Shown in pieces: positions 2,767-32,000 of a stretch of DNA of 32,000 bases. Source of the DNA: Haloquadratum walsbyi C23 (GTDB taxonomy: Archaea > Halobacteriota > Halobacteria > Halobacteriales > Haloferacaceae). Location of the stretch: positions 1,200,001-1,232,000 of the forward strand of contig NC_017459.1 in assembly GCF_000237865.1 (NCBI RefSeq), in the 5' to 3' direction. The position numbers and the translations under genes were made by a program. The notes beneath the pieces were generated by a model. It saw only the letters and a program-made list of their open reading frames with translations, was not told the DNA's origin and ran no database searches. The stretch's first letter is position 1. Each line of letters begins with the position of its first letter.

Positions 2767-2800
2767 AATAGGGGCGTGATGTAGGCAGCATTGAAACTTG

Positions 2801-4018
2801 ATGCTGCCGATTACGGATTTCCTCTCGTGCACCGACGTGCTGGATGAATTCGACTCGCTATCATATCATCAAACGACTCACGCCAAAACGTACGTGACAG
2901 GTCTTGCTGCGGGCCGCAGCAAGACTGTAACCGGAATTGCACGAGAGGTCCTTCCTGCCGGAAGTGACCGAGCACTCAACAAGTTCATCACCGAATACGA
3001 TTGGGATGAGGATCAGCTCAATCACGAGCGGTTAGAGGAACTGCAAAAACACGGAGAGACACGCTGGTCACAAAACGGCTATATCGTTATTGACGATTCA
3101 GTCATCCAGCGAACCGGGAAGTCCCTTCCCGGTGCTGGAGAGTTCTACGATCACTCTGAGGGTGAGCCTGTTTGGGGACAGAACCTCGTCTACGCGTTCT
3201 ATACCGATGATAAAACGTCCTATCCACTTGCTTTTCGCCAGTACGAGAAGGTCGACGACGAGGACGAGGAAGACGAACAGGAGACAAAATACGACCTCGC
3301 ACGAGAGATAATCACGGAATTAGAAGAAGAGGTAGGTGTGCCTGCGGGCACCTACCTCTTCGATGCATGGTTTGCTCATGACTCCGGTCTGATCGAACAC
3401 GTCGAATCACACGGCAAGGACTGGATTGGACCACTACGGGGCAACCGACAGGTGACCTACGCGAACAAAGAGAGACGCGTCGATGCGCTCGAAGAGTGCA
3501 TCGACAAGGAAGAGCGAGAAGTTGACGGTGAAACGTACAAAATTTGGACTAAGACAGTCCCTGTCTCGAAATTAGGTGAAGTTCGGCTGGTAATCACAGA
3601 GAAGGTTACCGATGAGGACAAAGAGAATCCAGTAAAGTATCTTGCGACGAGCAAGATTGACGCGCCTTCGGCACACATTATTCGGAGCTATTCGTACAGA
3701 TGGCGAGTAGAGACATTCTTCGAGGACTCGAAAGAGGATCTTGGCTTAGGAGACTGCGAGGTTCGTGATTCTGACGGTGCCAGTCGTCACTGGCACCTTC
3801 AGATGCTGGCCTACAGCCTTCTTCGGCTTGGTCCGGAATCGAGCGCCTCGGAGCGACTTGTCTCGAAAGCCTCGTCGCTCCGATCACAACTCGAACACGG
3901 TCTCAAGGAGACGATCTACAACATGTTTTCCTGGGTGCGCGATCAACCAGACCGCGATCTCGATGGACTGATGGAAGACATTGACCACCTCTTTCTCCAT
4001 TCTGAGGGTAGTTTATAA
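2801..4018 (+). CDS. DDE transposase (IS4/IS701-like superfamily)
   Basis: The track ORF 2798..4018 begins at TTG, and the first ATG is at 2801. Candidate DDE residues lie in VIDDSVIQRTG, YLFDAWFAHDS and the signature YRWRVETFFEDSKEDLGLGDCEVR. There is an acidic insert DDEDEEDEQE. The stop codon TAA (4016..4018) lies inside the right IR. Confidence 0.92.
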   Translation: MLPITDFLSCTDVLDEFDSLSYHQTTHAKTYVTGLAAGRSKTVTGIAREVLPAGSDRALNKFITEYDWDEDQLNHERLEELQKHGETRWSQNGYIVIDDSVIQRTGKSLPGAGEFYDHSEGEPVWGQNLVYAFYTDDKTSYPLAFRQYEKVDDEDEEDEQETKYDLAREIITELEEEVGVPAGTYLFDAWFAHDSGLIEHVESHGKDWIGPLRGNRQVTYANKERRVDALEECIDKEEREVDGETYKIWTKTVPVSKLGEVRLVITEKVTDEDKENPVKYLATSKIDAPSAHIIRSYSYRWRVETFFEDSKEDLGLGDCEVRDSDGASRHWHLQMLAYSLLRLGPESSASERLVSKASSLRSQLEHGLKETIYNMFSWVRDQPDRDLDGLMEDIDHLFLHSEGSL

Positions 4019-9510: not shown

Positions 9511-10260
9511 TCAGCGAGCAATCAATGCCGCTTGTCCGCCAGCAACAAACCCGGCGTCGATATTGACGACCGTCAGGTAGGTACAAGACTGTAGCATTCC
9601 TAACAAAGCCGCTTCACCATCGCCAGCGTAACCGGAACCAGTGCCGACAGGAAGTCCGATAACGGGCGCTGAGACCATTCCAGCTACCACTGTTGCGAGT
9701 GCCCCCTCACGACCGGCGGCGACAATTACACAATCGCAGTCAGCCAGTGTCTCTCGTTCTGATAACAGCCGGTGGATACCCGAAACGCCGACATCATATA
9801 GTGTCTCAACAGCACAGCCCATCTCCTCACTCAGTGCAACTGCCTGCTCAGCGACAGTGATGTCTGATGTGCCGGCGGTCACGACACCGACGGTCCCATC
9901 ATGATCGGGTCGCTCAAAATCTGATGCATGACCAACGAATGTCCGAGAGCGCTCATAAAACTGTGTAGTGGCAGCGGTGTCGCTTAGCTCTTCTCGAACA
10001 GTATCAGAGACTCCAGTCACGATTGCCTGACCAGCCGTTGAGAGAAGTTCGCGTCCAATGTCGATAGTCTGTTGATCACTTTTGCGTTCTGCTTCGACAA
10101 CCTCGGGGATTCCAGTTCGCTCGCCTTGTCGAGCATCCACCCGTGCGAATTCATCTATTTGATGAACTCCTTTTACCCGACGTTTAGCCTCCTGAAGTTC
10201 AATCTCGTTTTTAGCTAATGCTTCGAGAACATCATTGACTGCGGTGTCATCATCAGTCAT
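9511..10260 (-). CDS. larB: LarB-like protein (PurE/NCAIR-mutase-related; pyridinium-3,5-biscarboxylic acid mononucleotide synthase family, COG1691)
   Basis: The C-terminal AIR-carboxylase/PurE-like fold shows GVVTAGTSDITVAEQA...VIVAAGREGALATVVAGMVSAPVIGLPVGTGSGY. A ~110-aa N-terminal extension contains RVDARQGERTGIPEVV, typical of LarB rather than PurE. It lies 9 bp downstream of the NaPRTase gene on the same strand. Confidence 0.82.
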   Translation of the reverse strand: MTDDDTAVNDVLEALAKNEIELQEAKRRVKGVHQIDEFARVDARQGERTGIPEVVEAERKSDQQTIDIGRELLSTAGQAIVTGVSDTVREELSDTAATTQFYERSRTFVGHASDFERPDHDGTVGVVTAGTSDITVAEQAVALSEEMGCAVETLYDVGVSGIHRLLSERETLADCDCVIVAAGREGALATVVAGMVSAPVIGLPVGTGSGYAGDGEAALLGMLQSCTYLTVVNIDAGFVAGGQAALIAR

Positions 10261-10269
10261 GTAATGATG

Positions 10270-11421
10270 TTATTTGTCACCGCCGGTATCAAAGACCCCG
10301 CGATTCCGGAGTGTGGGAATTGCCTCACGTGCTCGGTCAGCAGCCACGGCAATATCAAATGTTCGAACTTTCTCACCATCACGAATTAGTGGTTTCAAGA
10401 GTTTCTCTCCAGGAGCGGTTTCACCGGCTACAACAACTTTGTCATCATATCCGTCTCGATAGACGGTCTTCGCACCGGAACGGACACCACGCTTGGCTCG
10501 TGGCTCTCCCTCAACCGCCACAAGATTCAATGAAAAGTCAATGGGGTCAGCATCAGCAATCGCCCCACCAACACCAAATCCGTCAGCAACATCCCGAAGA
10601 CGGTTGATATCCCCAACGCCAATTCCTCCACTGACGAGTATATCGATATCGTCCGTTTCTCGTTGTTGCAACTCCCAGCGAACGTCTTCGATGATTGCCC
10701 GCATATCACCTCGACGTGAGCTTGTGGTGTCCAGACGAACTCCCTCTAACCGATCCTCAAGACAATCTATAGCGCGAGCACCCTCATCAGCCTCATCACC
10801 GAATGTGTCGCATAGTAATACCCTTGGCACCGACTCTTCAAGTGCTTCGTCGTACGCAGTCCAAGCCGCCTCAGGCGATCCTAACGCGACGACGAGGGCA
10901 TGGGGCATAGTGCCACCGGCTTCGACACCAATCACCTCACCACCGGCGACGTTCCCAATTCCATCTACACCACCTATGAGCGCAGAACGCTCGATCATCG
11001 CGCCCAATGCCGGATGTTGACGACGGGTCCCAAAGCTCAATACTGTCCGGTCATGAGCCGCCGCTCTTACCCTCCAGGCAGCAGAGGCAATTCCGGAAGC
11101 ATGAGCAAGAAATCCTAACAACGATGATTCATACCGTGCGAACATGCGGTACGGACCCTCAATACGTAATATGGGACCACCAGAGATTGGCGTCCCTTCG
11201 GGAGGTGCATATACATCAACAGGAAGTCCTTCCAGCAACTGAGCGGCATCATTAAGACCCGCGAGCAAGTGCCACCCCTCAGGCGCGGAAAGCTCTGCAG
11301 TGACTGTTGGGTTCTCATCAACGTGGTCGAGTATGGTTTCAGTGCGTAGAAAGTACGCCGCCGTCGCTTGACCGTCGTCAATCTCTGATTCGGTCAAAAT
11401 ATCATACTTCCGGTCGTCCAT
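10270..11421 (-). CDS. pncB: Nicotinate phosphoribosyltransferase, archaeal type
   Basis: It aligns by eye along its full length with the Thermoplasma-type NAPRTase pattern: ATAAYFLRT, EGLPVDVYAPPEGT, GFLAHASGIAS, SFGTRRQHP, GGTMPHAL, VRLDTTSSRRGD, VRWEL, ILVSGGI, FGVGG. I place the start at MDDRKYDIL (ATG 11421); the track ORF extends to 11484. Confidence 0.9.
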   Translation of the reverse strand: MDDRKYDILTESEIDDGQATAAYFLRTETILDHVDENPTVTAELSAPEGWHLLAGLNDAAQLLEGLPVDVYAPPEGTPISGGPILRIEGPYRMFARYESSLLGFLAHASGIASAAWRVRAAAHDRTVLSFGTRRQHPALGAMIERSALIGGVDGIGNVAGGEVIGVEAGGTMPHALVVALGSPEAAWTAYDEALEESVPRVLLCDTFGDEADEGARAIDCLEDRLEGVRLDTTSSRRGDMRAIIEDVRWELQQRETDDIDILVSGGIGVGDINRLRDVADGFGVGGAIADADPIDFSLNLVAVEGEPRAKRGVRSGAKTVYRDGYDDKVVVAGETAPGEKLLKPLIRDGEKVRTFDIAVAADRAREAIPTLRNRGVFDTGGDK

Positions 11422-11745
11422 CGAACGTGATTCGGCTAACATAGCAATAAGCGCTGGGAACCCTCGCTCATGACGTCCCCTCACCAGGATTTAATGAAAA
11501 GACTGACCCACTACACGGATTAGTGATGACAGAATCTGTATAGCAAATTCTTTTATGATTCGGCTCAAGCAAAGCATACTAACCATTGAATTGTATAACT
11601 TTCACATCATTGTCGCCGCAGTCAACAGCCACCATGGATGTAACCACAAAATCGCGCGGTTGTAGTCTTCTATTAAAAAACAAGGCGAATACCCCGAGGC
11701 GATTCACATTCTACCCGGAAGTAACAAATATCAATCATCCTTGCA

Positions 11746-13017
11746 TCAAGAGGATCCAGATTCGGTCCGCTCGCCGACGGTGATAGTAAATCCAATATTA
11801 CGAAGTCGCGTCGCCAGTGGCTCGCCAATGCCTGATGCAGGTGTCAGTATCCCACCAGACAGTGATGAGTTGGTCTCATTCCGGAGAAGACACAGTGCAC
11901 TCTCGGCAAGCATCCGTGCAGTCGAACCGTATCCAGGGTCCAACTTCGAGCTAAACTCAGCCTCGATGGTAAATGGATCATCTGTACCCGTGCCACGCCC
12001 GAGCGCACGGACGGTGAAGTAACCGTTCTCAATCTGTTTCTTCGTCGGTCCGTCTCCCGGGTCGGGGAACACAAACTGCCGGATTCCTGAACGAACAGTA
12101 TCAATAGACATTGCAGTTGTAAAGAGACCAATCCCACCGGCGACAATACTGGCACCGATTGCACCACCAATTCCAGAGCCGGTTGGAATGACCTCTGTAC
12201 AGCGGAACTCCCGACCCCAGGGATATCCGAGAAGTGCATTGCTCCGTCGGAGAACACGTTCATTGATTGGTGCCATCGGAGATGGTGCTGTCCACACTGA
12301 CCGTAATTGATCACTCCGTGGTAAGCGCTGTCCGCCTGCGTCAATTCCATCTCGCTCACCTGGTGGCGCAAGCGAGTATGGATCTTGAAGTGTTTGCCGA
12401 GTCACTGGATCATCAGAAGCAGCGTCAAATAACTCGGCGAAACTAGCCAATGTTCCACCGCTTACTCCTCCATTTCCTTCCTCAAGATATATTCGAACCA
12501 TCTCACAGTGAGTGTCAAAGTTTTCAATCGCAAATGACTGGACGAGTAATGTCCCGACATCCGCTGGTACAGAATCGAATCCACAACTGTGAATTATCCG
12601 CGTGTTAGCGTTGACTGCTGCATCGTGAAACCGATCAATCATCTCTCTCACCCAGTTTATTTCGCCGGTCAGATCACAGTACTCTGTCTGCGTCTCAATA
12701 CATGCCTCAACCAATGGGGTTCCGTACTTTGTGTATGGACCGACCGTCGTGCAGATCACCTGCGTGTCCTGTGTAATCTCACGGAGACTCTCTTGATCTG
12801 TTGCGTCGCCAATCACTGTTGGAATACTATCCCACCCCTTGTTCTGTGTGGTGAGTTCTGATACGATTGAATCAAGACGATCTGCACTTCGCCCACCAAG
12901 TGCCAGTGAAATCATATCCTGTGTATATTGCTCTGTGAGATACTCAGACACTAATTTTCCTGTAAACCCAGTTGCACCCCAAACGACGATATCGTACGGT
13001 CTATTTGTATTTGACAT
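11746..13017 (-). CDS. Saccharopine dehydrogenase-like NAD(P)-binding oxidoreductase family protein
   Basis: It has the N-terminal Rossmann motif YDIVVWGATGFTGKLVSEYL and length and architecture typical of the Sacchrp_dh_NADP family. The likely start is MSNTNRPYDIVV (ATG 13017); the track ORF starts at 13050. Confidence 0.85.
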   Translation of the reverse strand: MSNTNRPYDIVVWGATGFTGKLVSEYLTEQYTQDMISLALGGRSADRLDSIVSELTTQNKGWDSIPTVIGDATDQESLREITQDTQVICTTVGPYTKYGTPLVEACIETQTEYCDLTGEINWVREMIDRFHDAAVNANTRIIHSCGFDSVPADVGTLLVQSFAIENFDTHCEMVRIYLEEGNGGVSGGTLASFAELFDAASDDPVTRQTLQDPYSLAPPGERDGIDAGGQRLPRSDQLRSVWTAPSPMAPINERVLRRSNALLGYPWGREFRCTEVIPTGSGIGGAIGASIVAGGIGLFTTAMSIDTVRSGIRQFVFPDPGDGPTKKQIENGYFTVRALGRGTGTDDPFTIEAEFSSKLDPGYGSTARMLAESALCLLRNETNSSLSGGILTPASGIGEPLATRLRNIGFTITVGERTESGSS

Positions 13018-13305: not shown

Positions 13306-16110
13306 CTATTTGTGATACTGCCAGAATCGTGTGATTGCACCTCCCAGGTCGGTATATTCGACCGGTGTGAATTCTCGCTGTTGCTGTGGTGAGAGATACC
13401 TACGGAGATTCGTGCTGTCACTCGTCCCATACCGCTCATCCGCCAGAATACGAACACCAGTCTCATTCACACCACGGATCACACGCCCCACAGACTGTCG
13501 AACCCTCCGTGTTGATGGAATTAGCCGAGCCGCCTCCTGACCACCTGTTTCAGTGATTGCTCGCTGATATGCAATCTCAACTGCATCCATCTCTGAACTT
13601 GGCGGAGCCAGTGGCACTCCGACTGATAGACATGTATGAAGCTTTTCACCGTCAAAATCAACACCTTCTGTGATTGTACCACGGAGGCTGGTGCAAAGAA
13701 TCGCATCTCCTGACTCGAAGAACTTAGATAACAACGTGTCGGTCTCGTCAGCTGTACTGGATTTATCAACAAAACAGCGCTTTTCGATTGACAATGTTCT
13801 AAGATATTCATATGCCCATGCAGCCTCGCTGTAACTCGGCATTGCAATGAGGATATTACCCTCCGTCCGTGCTACTTGTGCGATCACCTCGGCATACTGC
13901 TCGCGAATATCGGTCATTGCCTGATGATTAGTCTCTCGCTCACCACGATTGGCTTTCGTGAATTTCGGGAGGTCGACCACGACAGACAGTCGATTCTTCG
14001 GCGAGAAGCGAAGCGGAAATCGGTCGAATGTCGTTGGTCGGGTTTCGACATCCTCAGTCATTTCATCTGTAATCCCATTCATCCAAAGTGTCATTTCATC
14101 TTCCGTAGATTGCACCTTTGTGTCTAATTCACCAAGTTGTGGCACGGCATCAATACCAATCGATTCACGAAATGGCTCCTTTGGGCGAAGAGTTGCACTC
14201 ATCAATATCCCGCTCCCAAGTTCAGAGAACACTCTTCGCAATTCGCGCTTTGGAATACAATTAAATAATCGCAACTCCGGCGTCCAGTGTTCGACCCACG
14301 CTGGGAACTGGTCTGGAAATGACTCCTTTTGTGATGGAATAACGCGAACTTCCGGATGATATACCGCATGCGGAGCCTGTGCCCACTGTCGGAAGAACGC
14401 CCCTACCTCTTGACCCTGTGGTGTTCGGTTGAGAATCCCGTGCTCGGTGAATGCAGTAAATACCTTTTCTAATCGGCTCATGATTCGCTCCGCGCCTTGC
14501 ATTACCGACATTGAGATGGATTCGTCTCTCTCGAGATCTCTTGTCAACTGATCTCCCCAATTAAGATTATTCGGATCAACCAGTGATTTTATTTCCCGGC
14601 TTTGTGCTTCCGAATCCTCTTGCCCGAATCGATGTATCAGACCTACTGCATCAATTGTTTCGCTTGCGTCGATGAGTCTCTGCTTTGCAATATTCAATAG
14701 TTTCTCTACAGCTCGCAATTCCTCAACCTCAATCCCGCTCGTTCTCAACTTTGCTCCGTCTTCGACAATTTTCTGCGCTAGTTCCGCATCCTCACGAGGA
14801 AGATTTGGAGTCGGGCTGTCAACAATGCTGCCACTCGCATATTGACGGGCAATTCTAACATCGTTACGAGCTTTCATGAGGGTATACAGATCAACTGACG
14901 TGGAAAGATTATCTCGACTACGCTCCTCAAGTTGATGTGCTTCATCGATAATTGCAATTGTTCGCTCATTAAGCAACCCTAGTTTTCTATCAGTCAAATA
15001 CCGAGTTTCGGGATCAAGCAGGTGATTATAATTCCCGATAATAACATCTGCCTGCTGTGCAAGAATGCACATTAATTCATGAGGACAGCATCCACTCGCG
15101 ACCGTTGCCTCAAACAGTGTTTGTTTATCGATAACATGAGATGGAGCATCCGCAAACTCAACGATTGATTCCTGTAATCCTGCGAGTGTCGCCGCATAGA
15201 ATGGGTCAAATCGACCTTGTAGATCCGATGGTAATTGATTATAATTCGAGTCAAGCCGAGTTGAATCGACAATTTCTGAGGTATGCGGGACATGCTGTGG
15301 ATACGGGGTCTCAATACCATCAATACACAATTGTGCGTTACTTTCTGTATCTCGCGGCTCTAATTGTGCAACAATATGTCTGATAGCCTCCGCTCTGTTT
15401 GGATCATACTGATGATTTTCTTGCGCCTGTACCGCCCCCTCACTCGGGGTTGACCAATCATACTCAGCCATTGAGTACGCTGGGGGGCTAAGATTATCTG
15501 GCCAGTCAAGTGGAATATCACTATTGAATCGAATGACCTCTCTCGTAGTGGCACGAAGATCCTGGGTTGCTTCTTGAGTGTCTGTTTTTGGGAGCTCTGC
15601 GTTCCTGATCGCCATCATATCAGCTTGTCCTCGCAAGACGACCGTCTGTATCGGGTCCGTCTCCGCTGGAAGTGTTGCATTTATGCCACGTAATTCGGCA
15701 ATAAATTGTTGAAGCTGTTTCTTGACCGGCGTGACAGCTATTACTCGATCATACTCTGGAGCGGATGCATTTGTCGGTGACCGATCGTTCAATTGCTTAG
15801 GATTTCGGATTGCATGAATGCTCGCTGTTATCGCAGCGAGTGTCTTGCCAGTTCCACATGCACCCTCTTTCAGATAATAGCCCTGCTCTCCAAGAGTATC
15901 TAAAAATGACTCAATTGCAGCGCGTTGATCCGCATAGATTGTGTCATATCGAAAGTATGGTGTCCACCCTGCATCAATATCCGATACAGTATCCGTACAC
16001 ATTGTTTGACGCGTTGTCGACTCAGTGGGTTGACCAGCATCCGTTACTGGTAACTCCTCAAGTGAACGTGAACGTGGACATTGATCTGTGGATGAGTCCT
16101 GTGAGGACAT
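13306..16110 (-). CDS. XPD/Rad3/DinG-family superfamily-2 DNA helicase (934 aa)
   Basis: FRYDTIYADQRAAIE (XPD-type N-terminus), Walker A GACGTGKT, DEAH box IIDEAHQL, NYNHLLD, and C-terminal helicase_C_2 motifs LCTSLRGTITEGVDF and RQSVGRVIR. Four Cys residues lie between Walker A and DEAH, in the order C-x78-CC-x5-C. Confidence 0.9.
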   Translation of the reverse strand: MSSQDSSTDQCPRSRSLEELPVTDAGQPTESTTRQTMCTDTVSDIDAGWTPYFRYDTIYADQRAAIESFLDTLGEQGYYLKEGACGTGKTLAAITASIHAIRNPKQLNDRSPTNASAPEYDRVIAVTPVKKQLQQFIAELRGINATLPAETDPIQTVVLRGQADMMAIRNAELPKTDTQEATQDLRATTREVIRFNSDIPLDWPDNLSPPAYSMAEYDWSTPSEGAVQAQENHQYDPNRAEAIRHIVAQLEPRDTESNAQLCIDGIETPYPQHVPHTSEIVDSTRLDSNYNQLPSDLQGRFDPFYAATLAGLQESIVEFADAPSHVIDKQTLFEATVASGCCPHELMCILAQQADVIIGNYNHLLDPETRYLTDRKLGLLNERTIAIIDEAHQLEERSRDNLSTSVDLYTLMKARNDVRIARQYASGSIVDSPTPNLPREDAELAQKIVEDGAKLRTSGIEVEELRAVEKLLNIAKQRLIDASETIDAVGLIHRFGQEDSEAQSREIKSLVDPNNLNWGDQLTRDLERDESISMSVMQGAERIMSRLEKVFTAFTEHGILNRTPQGQEVGAFFRQWAQAPHAVYHPEVRVIPSQKESFPDQFPAWVEHWTPELRLFNCIPKRELRRVFSELGSGILMSATLRPKEPFRESIGIDAVPQLGELDTKVQSTEDEMTLWMNGITDEMTEDVETRPTTFDRFPLRFSPKNRLSVVVDLPKFTKANRGERETNHQAMTDIREQYAEVIAQVARTEGNILIAMPSYSEAAWAYEYLRTLSIEKRCFVDKSSTADETDTLLSKFFESGDAILCTSLRGTITEGVDFDGEKLHTCLSVGVPLAPPSSEMDAVEIAYQRAITETGGQEAARLIPSTRRVRQSVGRVIRGVNETGVRILADERYGTSDSTNLRRYLSPQQQREFTPVEYTDLGGAITRFWQYHK

Positions 16111-18112
16111 GATATATAGAACACACGTACTGAAGATATTGAACGTTCACGCTTGAATATGATATGTAGAAATACTCACTTAGTATTTAATATAACTAAA
16201 TATTTATTATTCTCTTGAATTTTAATAATTACGAGGCTAAGTCCTCTTCCTCAAGGAGTGAGTGAAACGAACGAGTAGGGAAGGGATACAGCCGTACACT
16301 ATCTTGCCAAGAAATGACTAGCATGCTTTTTAACACTAAATTGTGACGAGCAGTATTCATCAGACTGACTTAGAGCGGGATACTAACCACGGTCAGCTTG
16401 AGTTATCGTCGTCACTATTACGTAGGGCTGGGACAGTCCGACTCAGAACGTCTATGGAGACTGGTAGCACTGTGGGTACGCGTCATCCGGACGTACCACT
16501 TGCAAATACTGTCACAGAAACAGAAAGTCCGATGCAAGAGCACAGAAGCCCCACCCTCAACGGATCGATAGCGGAGTAGGGTAGGGTAACTCACTGACAA
16601 AACACTCCGCAGATAATAGTCGTCCGTACTCAATGTTACTATATCGCTCATCATTAAATACAGTATCAATTGCGAACTGTCTGACGAGCCCCGTGTCCAA
16701 ACTATATTGATATCTCAATTTATGGATTTGAATTTAAAATAACCTGATAATTGTATATACAATACCCCATTTTCCAAGTACATTTTTCTAATTGATAGGA
16801 TAAAAAAGAAATACCATAAAATATAGTGTTATATCATCGGAGTAGCCTTTTTTATTATAATCCTATCGATACTGATGCTTATTACCACTCAGCATGGGGA
16901 TGAGACTACAGAAAATAGAAATATGTAAAATAGTGTTATATTAGCTCTCATACTGCGATGAGATACCGTTAGCAGTTATTTTCATTCCATATGTGATTGC
17001 TATGGTTGATTACACCTAAGATACTAATCATATAACGAAAGTACATCAGTTATAACATTTTGATAAAATGTCTATCGATTCGATAGATAGCACAAATGTG
17101 AACACATAATCTCGATGCTGAGTTATGATTCAATGACATATACCTTTCTTATTGCATATTTGTATTTATATACTCCAATGTTCGTCAGCGTTGTGAGCTA
17201 ATATATCAACAAACGGCATCACCGTGCACTATATGCCGAAATATAGTATATATCACTACTCAATTGGATTCATATAATTACTTTTGGCGAAATGAATGTA
17301 TCTCGGATAATTACTGAATTATTGCCGGATTGACTTCATATTTCATCCCATATGAAGAGATACGGCGAAACCCACTCGAATAAACTCTACTGTCCCAGAT
17401 CTATCGTCAAGAAACAGTAGGAGAGTTCATATTCAGCGCTGCGGTATACCCCGTTTGGACGTTGGACGATGATAGTTTATGAATGCCTGATAACAAACGG
17501 TCCTGGCTTAGTCGTATGACTAGTGAACTGCCCTGACCTGCCGCGCTCGGGGCTATCCGCCCTCGCTTGTTGAGGACGGGGGCTTAGCACCTGTATTTAG
17601 CTAATTAGCTAGTGAAGCGCTTCTAGATCAAATCAAAGCCCCCCAGGAGTTTTTGACTATCCGACGGAACTTGCATCTAATGCAGACACGGAGGTTCTAG
17701 TCTCCACAAGCGTGGATTCATTATCTACCTAAACCCTCTTATATCGACGGCAAAGCGTCTGAGTCTCCTTATTTCCGGATACTAACTCAGACATGGTTAA
17801 TGCCATCATAATTTTTATTTGTTACTTATAGATTGATGATTTATTTCATACTGTATCGGAGTTAATCCTGAGGTCAAGCCTCGGGGCATTCTCCTTGATA
17901 TCCCGTAGTTTCAAAAATACCACTCATATCTAGAAGAAACATGAATTTTTATCAATCAAATTTAACCAGGGATTGAACCGACCAATTTGAGAGACTGTCA
18001 TCGTCTTTAGCTGAATACATTCATTCAGACATATACTGATATTGAATACAATGCATGGATGCATCGCAGTCTTGAACAGTAATACATGCGAGTTCACTGA
18101 ATTCATTATGTA

Positions 18113-26526: not shown

Positions 26527-26963
26527 TTCCACAGAGTAGCCAATCGCGGCGGAGTGAAGTTGATTGGAGATTCTCTGGATAACAATCCTGTGGGAGACGG
26601 TGTACTCTCTAGTCTCTGAATATGACAGTAATCCAAAAATACTGAATCAATGGTACCATACTAAGCATTTACTTATATTTCGGTGTCCCAGATCTACTGA
26701 CATATTTGTATTTGCGCCACTCGCATGTGCGCTCGCCGCAGCATCATATATCCTTGCTGGGTGTGTGCAAGCACAAAGACTGTCGATTTGTTGAGTATCA
26801 ACTATTTCATTGATTTCGCTGAGATGCTCTTTGATAAGCTTATGTGTTTTGTTGCCGCATAACACACTTATGCCTGCATGTGAACATCTTACATGGACAA
26901 TTATTATACTGTCTCATGCAATGATGCGCCGATCTGCGCCTCTCCCATTTGTGGGGTACATTG

Positions 26964-27896
26964 ATGCGTATCGCTATTGCTGGAGCGACTGGGTGCGTTG
27001 GAAGCCGATTAATCCCGAGGCTTCTTGATGCTGGTCATACAGTCACAGCACTTGTCCGCGATGCCTCAGCGCCTCGTTCCGAATCGCTTGTTTCAGCCCC
27101 AGGCGTTCGAGTTGTCGAAGGCGACTTGCTCACCCCAGCAGGTGTTGACGAGTGCTGTTGCGATGCAGACATTGGTGTCTATCTCGTTCACTCACTTGGA
27201 TCAGGTTCAAACTACGCAGATAGAGATTGTCAGGCTGCGACAGCCTTTGCCCGTGCTGCATCAACGGCTAGTATCAATCGCGTTGTCTACCTCGGCGGTC
27301 TCGGAGATGTAGACGGAGATGGGGATGATCATCTCCACTCTCGGAGGGCAGTCGAATCTGTTCTCGGTGCTGACCGGTATGATTATCAACTGACAACAGT
27401 TCGAGCGGGTGTCGTCATCGGTTCGAATAGCCTCAGTTTTCAATTAATGCGACAATGTGCTGCTCGGGTCCCTGTTGCGCCGGTTCCCCCGGCGATAAAT
27501 ACACCATGTCAACCAATTGCCGTACGCGATGTCGTGCAGTATCTTACTGCTATCATCAATACCAAGACCACTGCTGAGGTGATTGAGGTCGGTGCACCGA
27601 ATGCTCGACCGTATGCCGACTTACTGAGAGTGGTTGCTAATGCACTTCAGACACGATTCAGCGTTCACATTATCCCTCGAATGCCACTTCCTGCGGCAGC
27701 TCTTGGTCTTGCTGCAGTCACAGATGTCCCATACCAGACGGTTTCGCCACTTGTCGAGAGCCTGTCAACACCTGCTGTCGTTTCAGACCCGAAGCCAGCA
27801 ATAGCGCTTGGTGTTGACCCGATCAGGTTCGAAACAGCTGTTGATGAGGTGCTGAGACCAACCGAGACCTCTATGATGCCGAACGCAAAGTCATGA
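26964..27896 (+). CDS. NAD(P)H-binding atypical SDR (NmrA/NDUFA9-like epimerase-fold) protein
   Basis: MRIAIAGATGCVGSRLIPRLLDAGHTVTALVRD is the Rossmann GxxGxxG motif. Length and pattern fit the NAD(P)-binding epimerase/NmrA-like fold. The ATG at 26964 follows a non-ATG track start at 26949. Confidence 0.85.
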   Translation: MRIAIAGATGCVGSRLIPRLLDAGHTVTALVRDASAPRSESLVSAPGVRVVEGDLLTPAGVDECCCDADIGVYLVHSLGSGSNYADRDCQAATAFARAASTASINRVVYLGGLGDVDGDGDDHLHSRRAVESVLGADRYDYQLTTVRAGVVIGSNSLSFQLMRQCAARVPVAPVPPAINTPCQPIAVRDVVQYLTAIINTKTTAEVIEVGAPNARPYADLLRVVANALQTRFSVHIIPRMPLPAAALGLAAVTDVPYQTVSPLVESLSTPAVVSDPKPAIALGVDPIRFETAVDEVLRPTETSMMPNAKS

Positions 27897-28633
27897 CAAC
27901 TGCAAATCAAAAAGAGTTCGGTGAAACATGGGTGTATGAAAGTATTATCAGCGCACTTCCTGGTATCGATATCCCGAATACCCTTGCGATTGGAATTCAA
28001 CTTGTCTTTTTCGAGACAGCAGTTCTTGCCTTCGCAGTGTGGGATAATAATGGCGCGATTGCAATCGTTGGGAGTGCTGCGGTTCTGCTTGCCACACTCG
28101 GTAGTGTCGAGATGCTCCGTATCAGTCGGCTTGTCCGCTCGCGGGCAGTACCAACAAGCTATAAGCGGTTATTGTTTGGTTCAAAGGTAGAGACTGTTCT
28201 GGGAGTGTTGGTTTATGTGGCACTTATCACCCATCTGTTTGTATTTGAGCCCCAACAGAGTGTACGACCGTTATTGCATTCGCTTCTCGGAGCGAACCCA
28301 CCAATTGTTGTCATGTATGTGCTTTTGCTCGTTGGGTGGGATATCTCATATCGCATTGGGACGAACTGGTGGGCAAGCTTGCTTGGACTTTGGCGAGCAG
28401 GTCGGTACCGAATTTCAAATGAGGGTTCGCATGAATTTAATCTTGATCCAGAAACGGCTCGCCTTCTTCGCCGTGCAGACTCTGAAACAGCACTTTTTGG
28501 TCTGCTCCAACTATCGATCGCTCCCGTTCTGAAAACAGGGTCAGTACTTCAAAATGTCCTGATCATCCACGTCATTGCTGTTGTTATTGTCTCTGGGACA
28601 GCAGCGATATTAATGAGTCCAAGCTTCCATTGA
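27893..28633 (+). CDS. Polytopic membrane protein of unknown function
   Basis: 246 aa with about 6 hydrophobic helices. Its start overlaps the stop of the preceding NAD(P)-binding protein gene (ATGA at 27893..27896), implying co-translation. Confidence 0.7.
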   Translation: MTTANQKEFGETWVYESIISALPGIDIPNTLAIGIQLVFFETAVLAFAVWDNNGAIAIVGSAAVLLATLGSVEMLRISRLVRSRAVPTSYKRLLFGSKVETVLGVLVYVALITHLFVFEPQQSVRPLLHSLLGANPPIVVMYVLLLVGWDISYRIGTNWWASLLGLWRAGRYRISNEGSHEFNLDPETARLLRRADSETALFGLLQLSIAPVLKTGSVLQNVLIIHVIAVVIVSGTAAILMSPSFH

Positions 28634-28723: not shown

Positions 28724-29431
28724 TTACATAGACCGCTGCGCGACCACTGAGAGATAGCCAATACGATCCTCTGCAACAGCGGCTTCCGCTTCGTGAATTC
28801 CATCAAGTAACCGCCGTCCGCGCTCACCGAGCAGTCCAAGTATTTGTTCATAATCAACTTTCTTTTCTAATTTCTCTTGCATCGCTAAGATGTCATCACG
28901 ATGGTTCTGAACGTCTATCACGTCATATCCAGCCGCTTCAATTGCCTCGATTGTTCCCTGTCGACTGCGGCTGGATTCTAAACAGAGTCCAGTGGTAATT
29001 GGGGCTGGTAAATCAGGCAGTTGTCCCTCAACAGTCACATCTGAAAGCGCAAGATATCCGTCTGGCTCGACGATTCGAGCCGTTTCAGTGAGTGCGGTTT
29101 CATGTTGTTCAGTGAGACACATTACACATTCTGCAAGCACGACCTCGACGCTATTATTTGAAAGCGGAAGCTGTCGCATATCACCGCGGACGGTCTCTCT
29201 CCCGCTTGGTGAACGATCAACTCCCACAACATTAGCCCCACGGTCACGCGCTATGGAGAGCGACGTACCGGCTCCACAGCCAATGTCAGCAACTTGCGTT
29301 CCTGTAGTTACCGCGGCGCGATCTAACAGCTCCTCTGTTGCCTCGCGACCGCCTGGGTGAAGCGGATCATCAAGAATGCTGCGAAGCGTATCCCATGGGT
29401 TTGCAAGCGCAGTCTCAAGCATTCCCTGCAT
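28724..29431 (-). CDS. Class I SAM-dependent methyltransferase, ArsM/UbiE-like (Methyltransf_11/31-type)
   Basis: SAM motif I VADIGCGAGTSL, motif II-like VVGVDRS, and post-motif VEVVLAECVMCL resembling the ArsM-type ..SNCVINL segment. A conserved-looking Cys lies in GLCLES, followed by AAGYDVIDV. The first ATG is at 29431 (MQGMLETA...); the track start at 29443 is GTG. This ATG lies 1 nt after the radical SAM gene's stop codon. Confidence 0.88.
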   Translation of the reverse strand: MQGMLETALANPWDTLRSILDDPLHPGGREATEELLDRAAVTTGTQVADIGCGAGTSLSIARDRGANVVGVDRSPSGRETVRGDMRQLPLSNNSVEVVLAECVMCLTEQHETALTETARIVEPDGYLALSDVTVEGQLPDLPAPITTGLCLESSRSRQGTIEAIEAAGYDVIDVQNHRDDILAMQEKLEKKVDYEQILGLLGERGRRLLDGIHEAEAAVAEDRIGYLSVVAQRSM

Positions 29432-29432
29432 A

Positions 29433-30878
29433 TTATTCACCACGTGATGCTGATTGATCGGTGACTTCTATTGCCTCAGTGACACTGGAATCCTGCTCAG
29501 CATCCTCAACAGAACACCCAGCGTCATCATCAATAGGTAATGGCTCATTGACTCCTGGTCTCCCTCCCCAGTTGTTTCGATTCCGAAGTGCATATTCACC
29601 GTCATCAGTCGTCATATTATATCCACAAAATGGGACTAATTCACCATCTTCGGTCGGCACAGAAATACAGCAATTATCTAATCGACCGGCATCGGCAGCA
29701 TCGGCATCCATGAACCCGGTTAATGATATTGGAAGCACACGATCAAGCATTTCATCCGCGCCTGCTGGGAGCGAAGGAGCATCTCCTCCACAACAATTAG
29801 CCGTCTGACAGGCAGCCTCACCACCAGCCGGAGTTTTTGCAATTAATTCCATCCAGTCACTTTCATCAACCAGACCAGATATGTTAGTGAACAGATCCGC
29901 TGAGAGGAACTTTGTCACTGGAACTGGACCCTGTTCACTAGGGAGTAACCCAGTGGCTGATTGACAGTATGCCGAACAGCACGGAACGGGCATGAGATCC
30001 CGTGGCTCAATCACTTCAAATCCCTCAGCAAGACGTTTCGCAGCCGTATCTAATGAGAATCGACCGTCATTCGTCTCATACCGACCAAAGTGAGCCACCG
30101 GCTGGAAATTGACGGACTCAACAATATCGCGATTTTCTAATGCATATCGAACAATATCTCCCATCTCGTGATCATTCGTGCCAGGAACAATTGTCGGTAC
30201 TAATACAACAGAGAGTCCAGCTTCTCGACAGGTCTTGACTGCTTCACGCTTAAGATCGGCTAAGTCAACCCCTCGGATTGCTTCATATGTCTCTGATTGA
30301 AGCCCATCGAATTGTAGATATATCGCAGTAACCCCAGCGTCAGAGAGTCGACTGGCATACCCCTTTTTTTCAACAAGCTCAATACCATTTGTGTTGATTT
30401 GAATGTGTTCGAATCCCATCTGAACTGCTCGTTCAACAATCTCTGGGAGGTCATCGCGAACTGTCGGCTCACCACCAGAGAACTGAATCGGTCGTGGACC
30501 ACCACTCTTTACAATTGTCTGTAACAATTTTTCAACAGTCTCGAATGATCGATGTGTCCCACCGGGTCCCGAACTTGCAAAGCAGAATGAACATGAAAGA
30601 TTGCAGTCAGAGGTCACCTCAATGACTGCCAGACAAGCGTGGTCATTACTGACAGTGAAATCCCCATCCGGATTAAATTCGGCATCAGGTTGAAATTGCT
30701 TTGCCCACTCCCAGTGATCAAGTGAATCCCAAACTTTCCGTGTCGTCTCACCGTGCTCTGGACATTCACGATGAAGATACACTGAGCTATCATCGGTGAC
30801 ATATTCACCCGGAATGAGAGTAAGACAACTCGGACAGAGGCTTGTCGTTGACTCCAGTCTCCGTTTGATTTGACTCAT
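29433..30878 (-). CDS. Radical SAM enzyme of the COG1964 / class-D methylase / Tes / GDGT-MAS-like family (N-terminal rubredoxin-like knuckle, CX3CX2C core, Cys-rich C-terminal auxiliary-cluster region)
   Basis: CPSC...ECPEHG N-terminal metal knuckle; radical SAM motif DCNLSCSFCFAS; FSGGEPT; NTNG. C-terminal Cys clusters are PCCSAYC, ACQTANCCGG and LTGFMDADAADAGRLDNCCISVPTEDGELVPFCGYN (compare the family ending hFMD...FD..R...CC......G...PFC.YN). The 92 N-terminal residues of the track ORF look non-coding, so the start is most likely MSQIKRR (ATG 30878) or MRIDMSQ (ATG 30890). Confidence 0.9.
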   Translation of the reverse strand: MSQIKRRLESTTSLCPSCLTLIPGEYVTDDSSVYLHRECPEHGETTRKVWDSLDHWEWAKQFQPDAEFNPDGDFTVSNDHACLAVIEVTSDCNLSCSFCFASSGPGGTHRSFETVEKLLQTIVKSGGPRPIQFSGGEPTVRDDLPEIVERAVQMGFEHIQINTNGIELVEKKGYASRLSDAGVTAIYLQFDGLQSETYEAIRGVDLADLKREAVKTCREAGLSVVLVPTIVPGTNDHEMGDIVRYALENRDIVESVNFQPVAHFGRYETNDGRFSLDTAAKRLAEGFEVIEPRDLMPVPCCSAYCQSATGLLPSEQGPVPVTKFLSADLFTNISGLVDESDWMELIAKTPAGGEAACQTANCCGGDAPSLPAGADEMLDRVLPISLTGFMDADAADAGRLDNCCISVPTEDGELVPFCGYNMTTDDGEYALRNRNNWGGRPGVNEPLPIDDDAGCSVEDAEQDSSVTEAIEVTDQSASRGE

Positions 30879-30890
30879 ATCAATTCGCAT

Positions 30891-30976
30891 TGTGGGAAGA
30901 ATATATACGTTATTCCTATGTGAAATATATACAATTGTGGCGAAGCAAAATATATCTTCAACGTATATATTCATGT
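30891..30976. promoter_or_regulatory. Divergent promoter region with four TATA-like boxes and a perfect 12-bp inverted repeat
   Basis: gaatatatacgt (30899..30910) and acgtatatattc (30961..30972) are exact reverse complements. Two more boxes lie between them: aaatatatac (~30924) and aaaatatatc (~30948). The left box is centred ~26 nt from ATG 30878 (minus strand), and the ~30952 box lies ~26 nt from ATG 30977 (plus strand). This spacing is as expected for leaderless haloarchaeal transcripts. Confidence 0.45.
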
Positions 30977-31498
30977 ATGATACACGAGGACCTGACAATA
31001 TCTGTGTCTTCGGACCCTGCTCAGGAGCTAGTCGAATCAAATGAACCAACACAGGAGATGACGCATCATATATCTCATAACGAGAAGTCAAAAGAACACT
31101 TGAGCGATTCACCGTCGCCTCCGGTGGCATCGCTGTTACCATGGCGGTCATCTGGACCGGAGTCAAGATCGAAGTCTAAATTTGGGTCTGGATCTGAATC
31201 TGATATCGAGATTAAATTATATATCGTGACTGGATACCATGGAAAGCTCAAAATCCCGGAGAGCTTCTGTCGGGAGTGCAACTTGTTTGTCCAAGCCGCA
31301 GATGCTGCGGCCGCACAGGTTGATGTCGATGTAGATGTATCAGTTGTCTCGTGGTGGACACACTTTCCTTTTGCACTTCGCTATGGTGGCTATCATCCGC
31401 CCGTTATCGTTGTTGAGGGGACTCGTCTTTCACAGGGACACCAGGTTCCGACAACAGAGTCGGTTGTTGAGGCAATTAAGAAATCAATGAATCGATAA
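30977..31498 (+). CDS. Thioredoxin/glutaredoxin-fold protein with a CxxC motif (CREC); start uncertain
   Basis: The C-terminal ~100 aa read IEIKLYIVTGYHGKLKIPESFCRECNLFVQAADAAAAQV...GGYHPPVIVVEGTRLSQGHQVPTTESVVEAIKK. This gives beta1, a CxxC loop, alpha1 and a cis-Pro-like PPV followed by beta strands, typical of a Trx fold. Upstream in-frame ATGs at 30977 and 31058 would add a Ser/Pro/Lys-rich tail that looks disordered. No ATG lies close to the fold. Confidence 0.55.
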   Translation: MIHEDLTISVSSDPAQELVESNEPTQEMTHHISHNEKSKEHLSDSPSPPVASLLPWRSSGPESRSKSKFGSGSESDIEIKLYIVTGYHGKLKIPESFCRECNLFVQAADAAAAQVDVDVDVSVVSWWTHFPFALRYGGYHPPVIVVEGTRLSQGHQVPTTESVVEAIKKSMNR

Positions 31499-31528
31499 TA
31501 TAAAGCCTCATGAGGGACTCTTTTTCGT

Positions 31529-32000
31529 ATGTCAACTCGACTAACTGATTTTTCATTACCTAATGTATCTGCTGGACCGGACCCGTTTTCGGTAGCTACA
31601 TTATCGGAGGAGATTGAGTTTGTCGTTCTCTTTTTTCAACGTGATCACTATTGCACCAACTGTCGTAAACAGGTACAAGCAATCGCCGAACAAATAGATG
31701 CCTTTCACGAGCATAACGCAGAAGCTGTTTCGATCGTCCCTGAGCCTGTCGAGCGTGTCGCAGAATGGCAGTCGAAATATGATCTTCCATATCCACTATT
31801 AGCCGATCCAGCAGCCGAAACTGGAGAGGCTTATGACCAACCTGTTCGGTTTGGAATATTAGGACGATTCAGCGACTTCTTCGGTCGGATGCCAGCGGTT
31901 GTCATTCTCGATCGTCGTCTCTCACCAACGGAAATTGCGTATACATATAAAGGAAGTTCAACGTTTGATCGACCTGATATTAAGACCCTTCTCACTGAAT
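31529..32000 (+). CDS. Peroxiredoxin/AhpC-TSA (redoxin)-like thioredoxin-fold protein, 3'-truncated by the window edge
   Basis: Absent from the ORF track because it is edge-truncated. ATG 31529 opens a frame that stays open to 32000: MSTRLTDFSLPNVSAGPDPFSVATLSEEIEFVVLFFQRDHYCTNCRKQVQAIAEQIDAFHEHNAEAVSIVPEPVERVAEWQSKYDLPYPLLADPAAETGEAYDQPV...VVILDRR. This matches the AhpC/TSA layout (F.LP...G..........vvLfF.....C..C..q.......fe..g..vv.IS.d......w......l.fplLsD......y.v), with a CTNC pair. Confidence 0.7.
   Translation, partial: MSTRLTDFSLPNVSAGPDPFSVATLSEEIEFVVLFFQRDHYCTNCRKQVQAIAEQIDAFHEHNAEAVSIVPEPVERVAEWQSKYDLPYPLLADPAAETGEAYDQPVRFGILGRFSDFFGRMPAVVILDRRLSPTEIAYTYKGSSTFDRPDIKTLLTE

Follow-up and report, generated by a model that had tools for sequence, protein, structure and literature searches.

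The window analysed here, a stretch of 32,000 nucleotides from Haloquadratum walsbyi C23 (contig NC_017459.1), ends in four genes, each confirmed at its coordinates by direct reading: a radical S-adenosylmethionine (SAM) protein and a methyltransferase on the minus strand and, divergent from these, two thiol-redox proteins, one thioredoxin-like (Trx-like) and the other a redoxin of the AhpC/TSA fold. Among genomes the best matches come from H. walsbyi assemblies, and the methyltransferase is 100% identical to an H. walsbyi protein, in agreement with the haloarchaeal background predicted from the letters alone, and homologues of all four proteins are found in other haloarchaeal genomes at 44-89% identity (tblastn), arranged as in the window. 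The features of the locus are:

28724..29431, minus strand: methyltransferase gene, 235 aa, class I SAM-dependent, with DVU_1556 as the closest family
29429..29435, minus strand: junction of the radical SAM and methyltransferase genes, TAA (29435-29433), one base t, then ATG (29431), read directly
29433..30890, minus strand: radical SAM gene, 485 aa counted from the first ATG, 481 aa with the ATG at 30878 as the possible alternative start
30891..30976, no strand: divergent intergenic spacer, 86 bp, AT-rich, with four ATATA-type elements
30977..31498, plus strand: Trx-like gene, 173 aa, acidic in its N-terminal part, then a putative Trx-fold domain carrying FCREC
31529..32000, plus strand: AhpC/TSA-fold redoxin gene with YCTNC, cut by the end of the window (170 aa in locus L001, an H. 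walsbyi assembly)

The cysteine motifs of the radical SAM protein and the TAA/one-nucleotide/ATG junction given in the original prediction are exact on reading. Elsewhere this junction is a short gap in some loci and an overlap of 1-4 nt in others, and the two genes read as an often translationally coupled pair. The spacer had been described as symmetric, TATA-rich and about 90 bp long; it is AT-rich, its exact length is 86 bp, and within it GAATATATACGTT (30899-30911) and AACGTATATATTC (30960-30972) form a perfect inverted repeat of 13 nt. Presumably it carries two putative archaeal promoters set back to back, and the inverted repeat is kept only in part and only among Haloquadratum relatives.

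The radical SAM protein matches Radical_SAM and Zn_ribbon_HMPTM in Pfam, and its sole close solved structure is GDGT-MAS (MJ0619; 7TOL, sequence E-value 3.6e-69), an enzyme of glycerol dialkyl glycerol tetraether (GDGT) synthesis, to which the predicted model (pLDDT 71.7) aligns in Foldseek with TM 0.69-0.71; membership of the Tes/GDGT-MAS type (COG1964), as first proposed for it, is upheld by these matches. Four NCBIfam models were of use in placing the pair: TrsS and the DVU_1556 methyltransferase (NF045646 / NF045667, listed source Haft & Tolstoy 2025), Tes (NF045702) and ArsM (NF008823). The best family for the radical SAM protein is TrsS, at 349 bits over the full length against a cut-off of 490, followed by Tes, at 282 bits against 450, where residues 15-310, the N-terminal two-thirds, are aligned and the C-terminal half is not. 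For comparison, the homologue of Halobellus clavatus (locus L034) scores 339 bits on the TrsS model, labelled Tes representatives score 481-556 on the Tes model and true TrsS members 545-617 on the TrsS model.

In an unrooted neighbour-joining tree of 146 radical SAM sequences with 60 bootstraps, the haloarchaeal sequences are monophyletic (60/60) and form, with eight other archaeal representatives, one clade (47/60) that holds no labelled Tes, MJ0619 included, and no labelled TrsS. The phylogeny that had been called for thus sets the haloarchaeal clade apart from both labelled families, although, the tree being unrooted, the 'halo+Tes' and 'halo+TrsS' split tests are uninformative and the nearest relative is not decided by it; the preference for TrsS over Tes comes from the model scores, the alignment coverage and the cysteine motifs. 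Judged by its sequence, the protein belongs to the Tes/GDGT-MAS superfamily (COG1964, HMPTM zinc-ribbon) and to a TrsS-like haloarchaeal clade of its own.

Comparison with GDGT-MAS (7TOL/7TOM) indicates a common fold, rubredoxin-type site, SAM cluster and C-terminal 'CC...PFC' region. For GDGT-MAS itself the motif CX2CX20CX2H, a C-terminal [4Fe-4S] cluster with a labile Met439 and a strictly conserved Tyr459 beside the substrate carbon have been described, together with an intermediate in which the substrate carbon is bonded to a cluster sulfur (Lloyd 2022). In the haloarchaeal protein the rubredoxin-type site is kept and invariant (CX2CX20CX2H, C19xxC22...C43PEH46G), as is the SAM-cluster motif CX3CX2C at 96-103 (C96NLSC100SFC103). 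The C-terminal cysteine groups are C304-C305...C309, C366-C367 and C407-C408...C422, with the landmarks FMD (393-395) and PFCGYN (420-425), and all the cysteines listed are invariant in 30 homologues. Among these, C309, C407 and C422 are retained superfamily-wide, and with the extra invariant cysteines three groups arise that are vicinal or nearly so, 304/305, 366/367 and 407/408; the C-terminal pattern C...C, CC, CC, C is mostly common to TrsS and the haloarchaeal clade. Nevertheless, the N-terminal [4Fe-4S] motif CPxDCGLCxxH (C73, C77, C80 and a His in GDGT-MAS), found in almost all the checked representatives of Tes and TrsS, is lost: the region reads DFTVSNDHAC, with the His alone left and the C73/C77/C80 ligands absent. 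In addition, CCIHY of GDGT-MAS aligns with C407-C408-I-S-V411, such that Tyr459 is replaced by a Val that is invariant in the haloarchaeal clade, and the labile Met439 is replaced by Thr391.

Tes homologues in some 20 Halobacteria genomes, including Halobellus clavatus and Halorientalis regularis (loci L034 and L026 here), have already been reported with their function left open, and lipid analyses of these two carriers found no GDGT (Zeng et al. 2022). Given the motif loss, the change of Tyr459 to Val and the lack of GDGT in carriers, the radical SAM protein is probably not a tetraether synthase, as the original prediction had also held. A further difference from GDGT-MAS is that the haloarchaeal enzyme, in a host presumed to make no GDGT, is always partnered by a methyltransferase.

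This methyltransferase, which contains VEVVLAECVMCL, has DVU_1556 as its best NCBIfam family at 128 bits (cut-off 155), and the adjacent methyltransferases score 128-136 bits on that model (window protein, L034). ArsM (NF008823) is second at 63.5 bits against a cut-off of 263, and other ArsM models reach 22-40 bits. Both haloarchaeal proteins have their best curated family, a full-length alignment and the same gene pairing in TrsS and DVU_1556, and both fall under the respective cut-offs (349 vs 490; 128 vs 155); Tes and ArsM, the families of reference in the original prediction, are displaced by this named pair, which is closer for both proteins. Across 65 haloarchaeal homologues three cysteines, C102, C105 and C150, do not vary; with the partners from Desulfovibrio, Methanonatronarchaeum and the sister clade included, C102 and C150 still do not, and that the DVU_1556 methyltransferases share these two supports homology. 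When the PDB was searched with a profile, C102 and C150 were aligned to the cysteines of SNCVINL and GECLAGAL in ArsM 5EVJ, the As(III)-binding residues of ArsM, and AtmM, PEAMT and MitM, aligned residue by residue in the same search, have no Cys at these positions. ArsM also has an N-terminal cysteine pair that forms part of a disulfide cascade; the alignment of the haloarchaeal methyltransferases holds no conserved Cys N-terminal of motif I. The nearest folds to the methyltransferase model (pLDDT 88) are AtmM, RebM, MitM, TleD, SpnF and PEAMT (phosphoethanolamine methyltransferases), with no ArsM among the top 50 Foldseek matches. Because of these fold neighbours, the C102/C150 alignment, the missing N-terminal pair and the scores, the modelled enzyme looks like a small-molecule methyltransferase bearing an ArsM-type thiolate pair and not like ArsM. 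The likeness to ArsM first drawn from SNCVINL (here ECVMCL) holds for that motif and extends to the second ArsM cysteine; by score (63.5 vs 263), fold and context the enzyme is not ArsM.

A genome scan, taking one genome per species, identified 68 loci, nearly all in Halobacteria and several on plasmids, of which 65 were readable downstream and 61 upstream; neighbours were counted by profile searches on six-frame segments and a gene call guided by third-position GC content. In all 65 loci readable downstream, the radical SAM gene is directly followed by a methyltransferase gene on its own strand, so that the adjacency, predicted to be conserved, is borne out both by these and by the fused proteins described below. 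The divergent upstream gene encodes a Trx-like protein in 16/61 loci and a DUF547 protein in 33/61, the two never occurring together (0 loci), and the AhpC/TSA-fold gene, when adjacent, always lies beyond one or the other. Beyond these, no family recurs in more than 7 haloarchaeal loci. The thiol-redox partners that had been predicted do therefore recur as neighbours, with the qualification that the Trx-like protein is replaced by DUF547 in most genomes.

Each of these redox proteins has its own cysteine motif. In the Trx-like protein the Trx-like part comprises the C-terminal ~90 aa only, with CREC; the Pfam Thioredoxin_3 score is 22.2, under the 24.8 cut-off, MTH895 and MJ0307 match weakly, and the best PDB match is 1FO5 (E = 0.04). 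The CxxC is invariant among its homologues, and the protein is classed as a probable family-specific small redoxin. The AhpC/TSA-fold protein scores 63.6 bits on Pfam AhpC-TSA and matches SelL-related, ResA and PrxQ proteins weakly, its PrxQ/BCP scores being far under cut-off. The peroxidatic Cys of peroxiredoxins sits in a Pxxx(T/S)xxC motif; the active site here, FQRDHYCTNC, has neither the Pro nor the Thr in register, and its CTNC is a CxxC. By its motif the protein is thus a CxxC redoxin without the peroxiredoxin catalytic motif, and the original label 'peroxiredoxin-like' (Prx-like) does not hold, though it is kept below as a short name. The DUF547 proteins of radical SAM loci have an invariant NCGAxSCP (CxxxxC), and no solved DUF547 structure was found. 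Homology between the Trx-like and DUF547 proteins was considered and rejected (hhalign probability 0.9%, none detectable); at their fixed position the two replace one another as non-homologous genes.

The Trx-like and AhpC/TSA-fold genes of the window are separated by a 30-nt gap. Three elements occupy the interval from the stop of the first to the start of the second: ATATAAA, which is TATA-like, at 31498-31504; CCTCATGAGG, which is perfectly palindromic, at 31506-31515; and TTTTT at 31521-31525. The elements at 31498-31525 could be a terminator, an internal promoter or both. These features, together with gaps in the distribution of the redox genes, bear on the possibility that the redox genes are bystanders, that is, that only the radical SAM protein and the methyltransferase cooperate and that the Trx-like and Prx-like genes, antioxidant in function and expressed on their own, lie nearby by chance. 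Neither a Trx-like nor a DUF547 gene lies within ~6 kb of the pair in 12-13/61 loci, the CxxC AhpC/TSA-fold gene is present in 22/68 loci only, and the ATATAAA and the hairpin with its T-run (31506-31525), as read by eye, would permit separate transcription. However, this is unlikely: the Trx-like/DUF547 pattern is position-specific and mutually exclusive across families, DUF547 recurs in the sister clade, and a four-gene unit bounded by transposases exists. In addition, the tblastn matches show the Prx-like protein to be better conserved (74% identity against L034) than the radical SAM protein (61%) or the methyltransferase (51%).

The transposase-bounded unit lies on a Salinirubellus plasmid (NZ_CP147842.1, L081), where Prx-family, DUF547, radical SAM and methyltransferase genes stand between transposases at 11127-12401 and 16610-17659; flanked in this way on both sides, they have the look of a mobile cassette. 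Genes for TauE (two copies), YeeE/YedE, AhpD-like and disulfide-reductase proteins were observed near this unit. On a Halorarius plasmid, the pair is part of an island that also carries DUF547, DsrE, TauE, thioredoxin, a gene resembling CoA-disulfide reductase, another methyltransferase and two DUF3179 genes. The cassette appears to decay in some lineages, given that on a Halalkalicoccus plasmid (L064/L082) the radical SAM gene is in fragments, with the annotation 'hypothetical', and that it is split in locus L022 (3337-7011), where its 5' part lies ~2 kb from the remainder, possibly through an insertion. Overall the cassette is accessory and looks mobile. A further observation is a membrane protein of ~200 aa with GSACCAP in a predicted transmembrane stretch and no Pfam match, which stands with DUF3179 beside the pair (L051 5056-5649, L064 9530-10189).

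ArsM pairs with radical SAM enzymes in pathways that form arsenosugar (ArsS) and arsinothricin (ArsL), and the pair studied here resembles such systems in keeping the SNCVINL- and GECLAGAL-type cysteines and in having a radical SAM enzyme as genetic partner. This raises the possibility of an organo-metalloid pathway, in which the radical SAM enzyme would make a C-As (or C-Sb/Te) bond, the ArsM-like enzyme would methylate the metalloid and the redoxins would stand in for the N-terminal cysteine pair of ArsM. That both ArsM-motif cysteines are kept while the N-terminal pair is absent is consistent with such a division, as are the rank of ArsM as second-best NCBIfam family, the annotation by JGI of some homologues as arsenite methyltransferase, the several plasmid copies and, at one locus (L028/L080), an ArsC-like low-molecular-weight phosphatase directly upstream. 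Nevertheless, this pathway is quite unlikely: the 68 loci hold no recurrent ars (arsA, arsB/ACR3, arsD, arsR), mer or selenium genes, the ArsC-like protein scores 62.6 bits against a cut-off of 174, and the methyltransferase differs from ArsM in score, fold and N-terminus as described above, its partner being of another radical SAM family. The organoarsenical analogy of the original prediction thus finds almost no support in the gene context.

The radical SAM-methyltransferase pair is the constant element in every lineage examined. In Desulfovibrio-type loci from two independent genomes (L069 133-14741, L079 343-13572) a true TrsS is found within a conserved cluster of ~11 genes, in the order MoeA-like, MOP aldehyde oxidoreductase, Fe-S oxidoreductase, DUF7479, methyltransferase, C_GCAxxG_C_C, TrsS, AMP-binding, XdhC, NTP_transf_3+HD (a MocA-like NTP transferase) and His_Phos_1. 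The order in Methanonatronarchaeum is URO-D, DUF7479, TrsS, methyltransferase, and in Bathyarchaeia the methyltransferase precedes TrsS with DUF7479 nearby; this small zinc-ribbon partner is present in TrsS loci L069, L070, L079 and L084, whereas neither the window nor any of the haloarchaeal loci gave a match. In some archaea the pair adjoins URO-D, corrinoid-protein and cobW genes. The radical SAM domain is also fused to NTP_transf_3, AMP-binding, LGT and DUF5714 domains, and the fusions P0155, P0168, P0177 and P0180, from other organisms, were seen to echo the neighbours of Desulfovibrio TrsS.

Given these partners, it is possible that the pair serves cofactor maturation, modifying or building a pterin/molybdenum or corrinoid-related cofactor. 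The MoeA-like, MOP aldehyde oxidoreductase, XdhC, NTP_transf_3+HD, AMP-binding and His_Phos_1 genes common to both Desulfovibrio-type loci, the fusion of NTP_transf_3 or AMP-binding to the radical SAM domain and the corrinoid-related neighbours in archaea are all consistent with such a role. For the haloarchaeal genes it is nevertheless very unlikely, as their loci hold none of the Desulfovibrio or methanogen partners: in place of DUF7479, C_GCAxxG_C_C, AMP-binding, XdhC and NTP-transferase they have DUF547, or Trx-like and Prx-like, genes. Furthermore, the haloarchaeal clade is a separate branch from which a whole cluster domain, kept in TrsS, has been lost, and because of this its function may have diverged.

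Five proteins in which the radical SAM and methyltransferase parts are fused, in both orders and with the same methyltransferase family, bring to mind a two-component radical methylase. Here a methyl group would be loaded onto a Cys of the radical SAM protein (selenocysteine in TrsS selenoproteins) and passed to the substrate radical, in the manner of RlmN/Cfr but in trans, and the CxxC proteins would resolve the resulting disulfide. Besides the fusions, the universal pairing, the vicinal cysteine pairs common to the haloarchaeal clade and TrsS, the adjoining thiol-reductant genes and the naming of TrsS as a (seleno)protein by NCBIfam fit this scheme; selenocysteine (U) was sought in the fetched TrsS sequences and none was seen. 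On the other side, the fold of the methyltransferase and its C-terminal cap fit small-molecule and not protein methyltransferases, and its own invariant cysteine pair would be left unaccounted for, which makes a radical methylase of this kind improbable.

In sister-clade archaea the radical SAM gene is again followed by the methyltransferase gene, with DUF547 in L071, L078 and L083 and DUF3179 in L071 and L083. A flavoprotein of the geranylgeranyl reductase (GGR) family, under the family cut-off, is divergent beside the pair at L072 6915-7976, L078 1992-3080 and L083 5819-6907, the L072 copy being ~33% identical to those of L078 and L083. No GGR-like gene was found in the haloarchaeal loci or in the last 12 kb of the window, which was searched for it. 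These neighbours, the GDGT-MAS fold and the LGT-radical SAM fusion of a relative could be taken to indicate true lipid tail coupling, whereby a macrocyclic archaeol, GDGT or similar C-C lipid would be formed in trace amounts or conditionally, with the methyltransferase adding a methyl branch. Such coupling is extremely improbable given the loss of Tyr459 and of the N-terminal cluster, the score under the Tes cut-off and the absence of GDGT from the carriers analysed (Zeng et al. 2022), and it would leave both the redox arm and the cysteine pair of the methyltransferase unaccounted for.

The classification and gene organisation described above are held with high confidence. As read from the sequences, the pair is obligate and is the haloarchaeal branch of a widespread TrsS-like/DVU_1556-like pairing in the Tes/GDGT-MAS superfamily, and in haloarchaea it is usually completed by a divergent thiol-redox arm consisting of a Trx-like or, more often, a DUF547 protein followed by the CxxC AhpC/TSA-fold redoxin. 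No characterised orthologous group takes in the radical SAM protein, the adjacency is not unique to this genome, the redox genes did not prove to be independent housekeeping genes, and no characterisation of these haloarchaeal proteins was found in the available literature up to 2026. The best explanation overall, tentative and falling a little short of even confidence, is that the pair and its redox arm form a dedicated module for radical C-H functionalisation plus methylation. This grade reflects the high confidence in classification and organisation set against the chemistry, a heteroatom step plus methylation, which is in itself doubtful. Because a Cys-bearing methyltransferase is constant and redox genes are usual in a presumably GDGT-free host, a radical-plus-methylation reaction is probable in place of tetraether synthesis, and the module probably centres on sulfur or a chalcogen, with a hydrophobic small molecule as its substrate.

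In the mechanism proposed for this module, whose steps are given in no specified order, the radical SAM cluster would cleave SAM and the 5'-deoxyadenosyl radical would take a hydrogen from a hydrophobic small molecule, perhaps an isoprenoid, at an unactivated sp3 carbon. The substrate radical would be caught at the presumably retained C-terminal [4Fe-4S] cluster, as in GDGT-MAS, among the extra vicinal cysteine pairs, and the carbon would keep a heteroatom, most likely sulfur but conceivably a heavier chalcogen or a metalloid, in place of C-C coupling to a second tail. The methyltransferase would hold this soft atom between its two ArsM-type cysteines and methylate it, and the CxxC and CxxxxC proteins would re-reduce or re-sulfurate the used cysteines. 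That the first half-reaction is the same as in GDGT-MAS is suggested by the retained scaffold and the putative C-terminal cluster; methylation of a soft heteroatom is suggested by the cysteine-pair methyltransferase, the CxxC/CxxxxC partners and the sulfur-trafficking genes of the plasmid islands, with sulfur the most economical guess; and a hydrophobic or isoprenoid substrate is hinted at by the GGR genes of the sister clade and by the natural-product methyltransferases among the fold neighbours. MiaB, RimO and MtaB are radical SAM enzymes in which an auxiliary cluster supplies sulfur for a C-S bond and that sulfur undergoes SAM-dependent methylation. They offer a mechanistic analogy only; both activities reside in one polypeptide and the radical SAM subfamily is unrelated. 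The more specific proposal, that Tes-type radical chemistry has been repurposed to leave S, Se or a metalloid on an unactivated (isoprenoid) carbon for methylation by the cysteine-pair enzyme, is rather unlikely.

Several points weigh against this C-H functionalisation and methylation module, in addition to the loci, noted above, where the redox arm or its Prx-like member is missing. The chemistry is drawn from anatomy and neighbours, and the TrsS-like branch has no member with a known substrate or product. The Desulfovibrio TrsS loci point elsewhere, with their aldehyde oxidoreductase, XdhC, MocA-like NTP transferase and AMP-binding enzyme. Thiol methyltransferases normally need no cysteine pair, C150 is absent in some of the fused relatives, and the confidence of the radical SAM model is low around the C366/C367 loop.

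The remaining genes of the window are ordinary and unrelated to the radical SAM-methyltransferase finding, among them an aldehyde dehydrogenase, an insertion sequence (IS) transposase, an ABC transporter, an XPD-like helicase and a beta-CASP nuclease. The transposase is of the DDE type (DDE_5 / DDE_Tnp_1) and lies at 2798-4018. At 9511-11484 on the minus strand an AIR-carboxylase-family protein (249 aa) adjoins a QRPTase-family protein (404 aa), which may be a nicotinate-derived cofactor pair, likewise unrelated. A segment of ~1.2 kb at 16720-17930 is without any open reading frame of at least 50 aa and has no Rfam or tRNA match; GC content around it is the lowest in the window (39.5% for 16001-18000 vs 44-51% elsewhere), and the whole window was found to contain no tRNA and no Rfam family. 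Just downstream of the methyltransferase, on the opposite strand, the gene for a DUF7530 membrane protein shares 4 nt with that for an NmrA-like NAD(P)-binding protein (26949-28633). Since among the fetched loci they are confined to the two H. walsbyi assemblies (L001, L002), they are not counted as cassette members.

The presence of Tes homologues in Halobacteria was already known (Zeng et al. 2022) and the TrsS and DVU_1556 families had been defined by NCBI curators. What is new here is the delimitation of the haloarchaeal clade as a distinct variant, with specific losses relative to Tes and TrsS, and the description of the conserved ArsM-type cysteines, the Trx-like/DUF547 alternation at a fixed position and the cassette-like four-gene unit. 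With lost lipid-synthase features, an obligate methyltransferase partner bearing two ArsM-type cysteines and a dedicated thiol-redox arm shown for these genes, the question left by Zeng et al. 2022, namely the role of Tes homologues in GDGT-free Halobacteria, becomes testable: Halobellus clavatus, Halorientalis regularis and H. walsbyi are cultured carriers, and the compact cassette could be transferred to a model haloarchaeon. The haloarchaeal genes are unfit as markers of GDGT synthesis in environmental surveys, and they are tied to TrsS systems in sulfate reducers and methanogens that are no better characterised. If Tes chemistry has indeed been repurposed as proposed, this would be a new class of radical SAM system forming C-heteroatom bonds, and haloarchaea would make an undescribed methylthio-type or organo-metalloid lipid or metabolite encoded on a mobile four-gene cassette.

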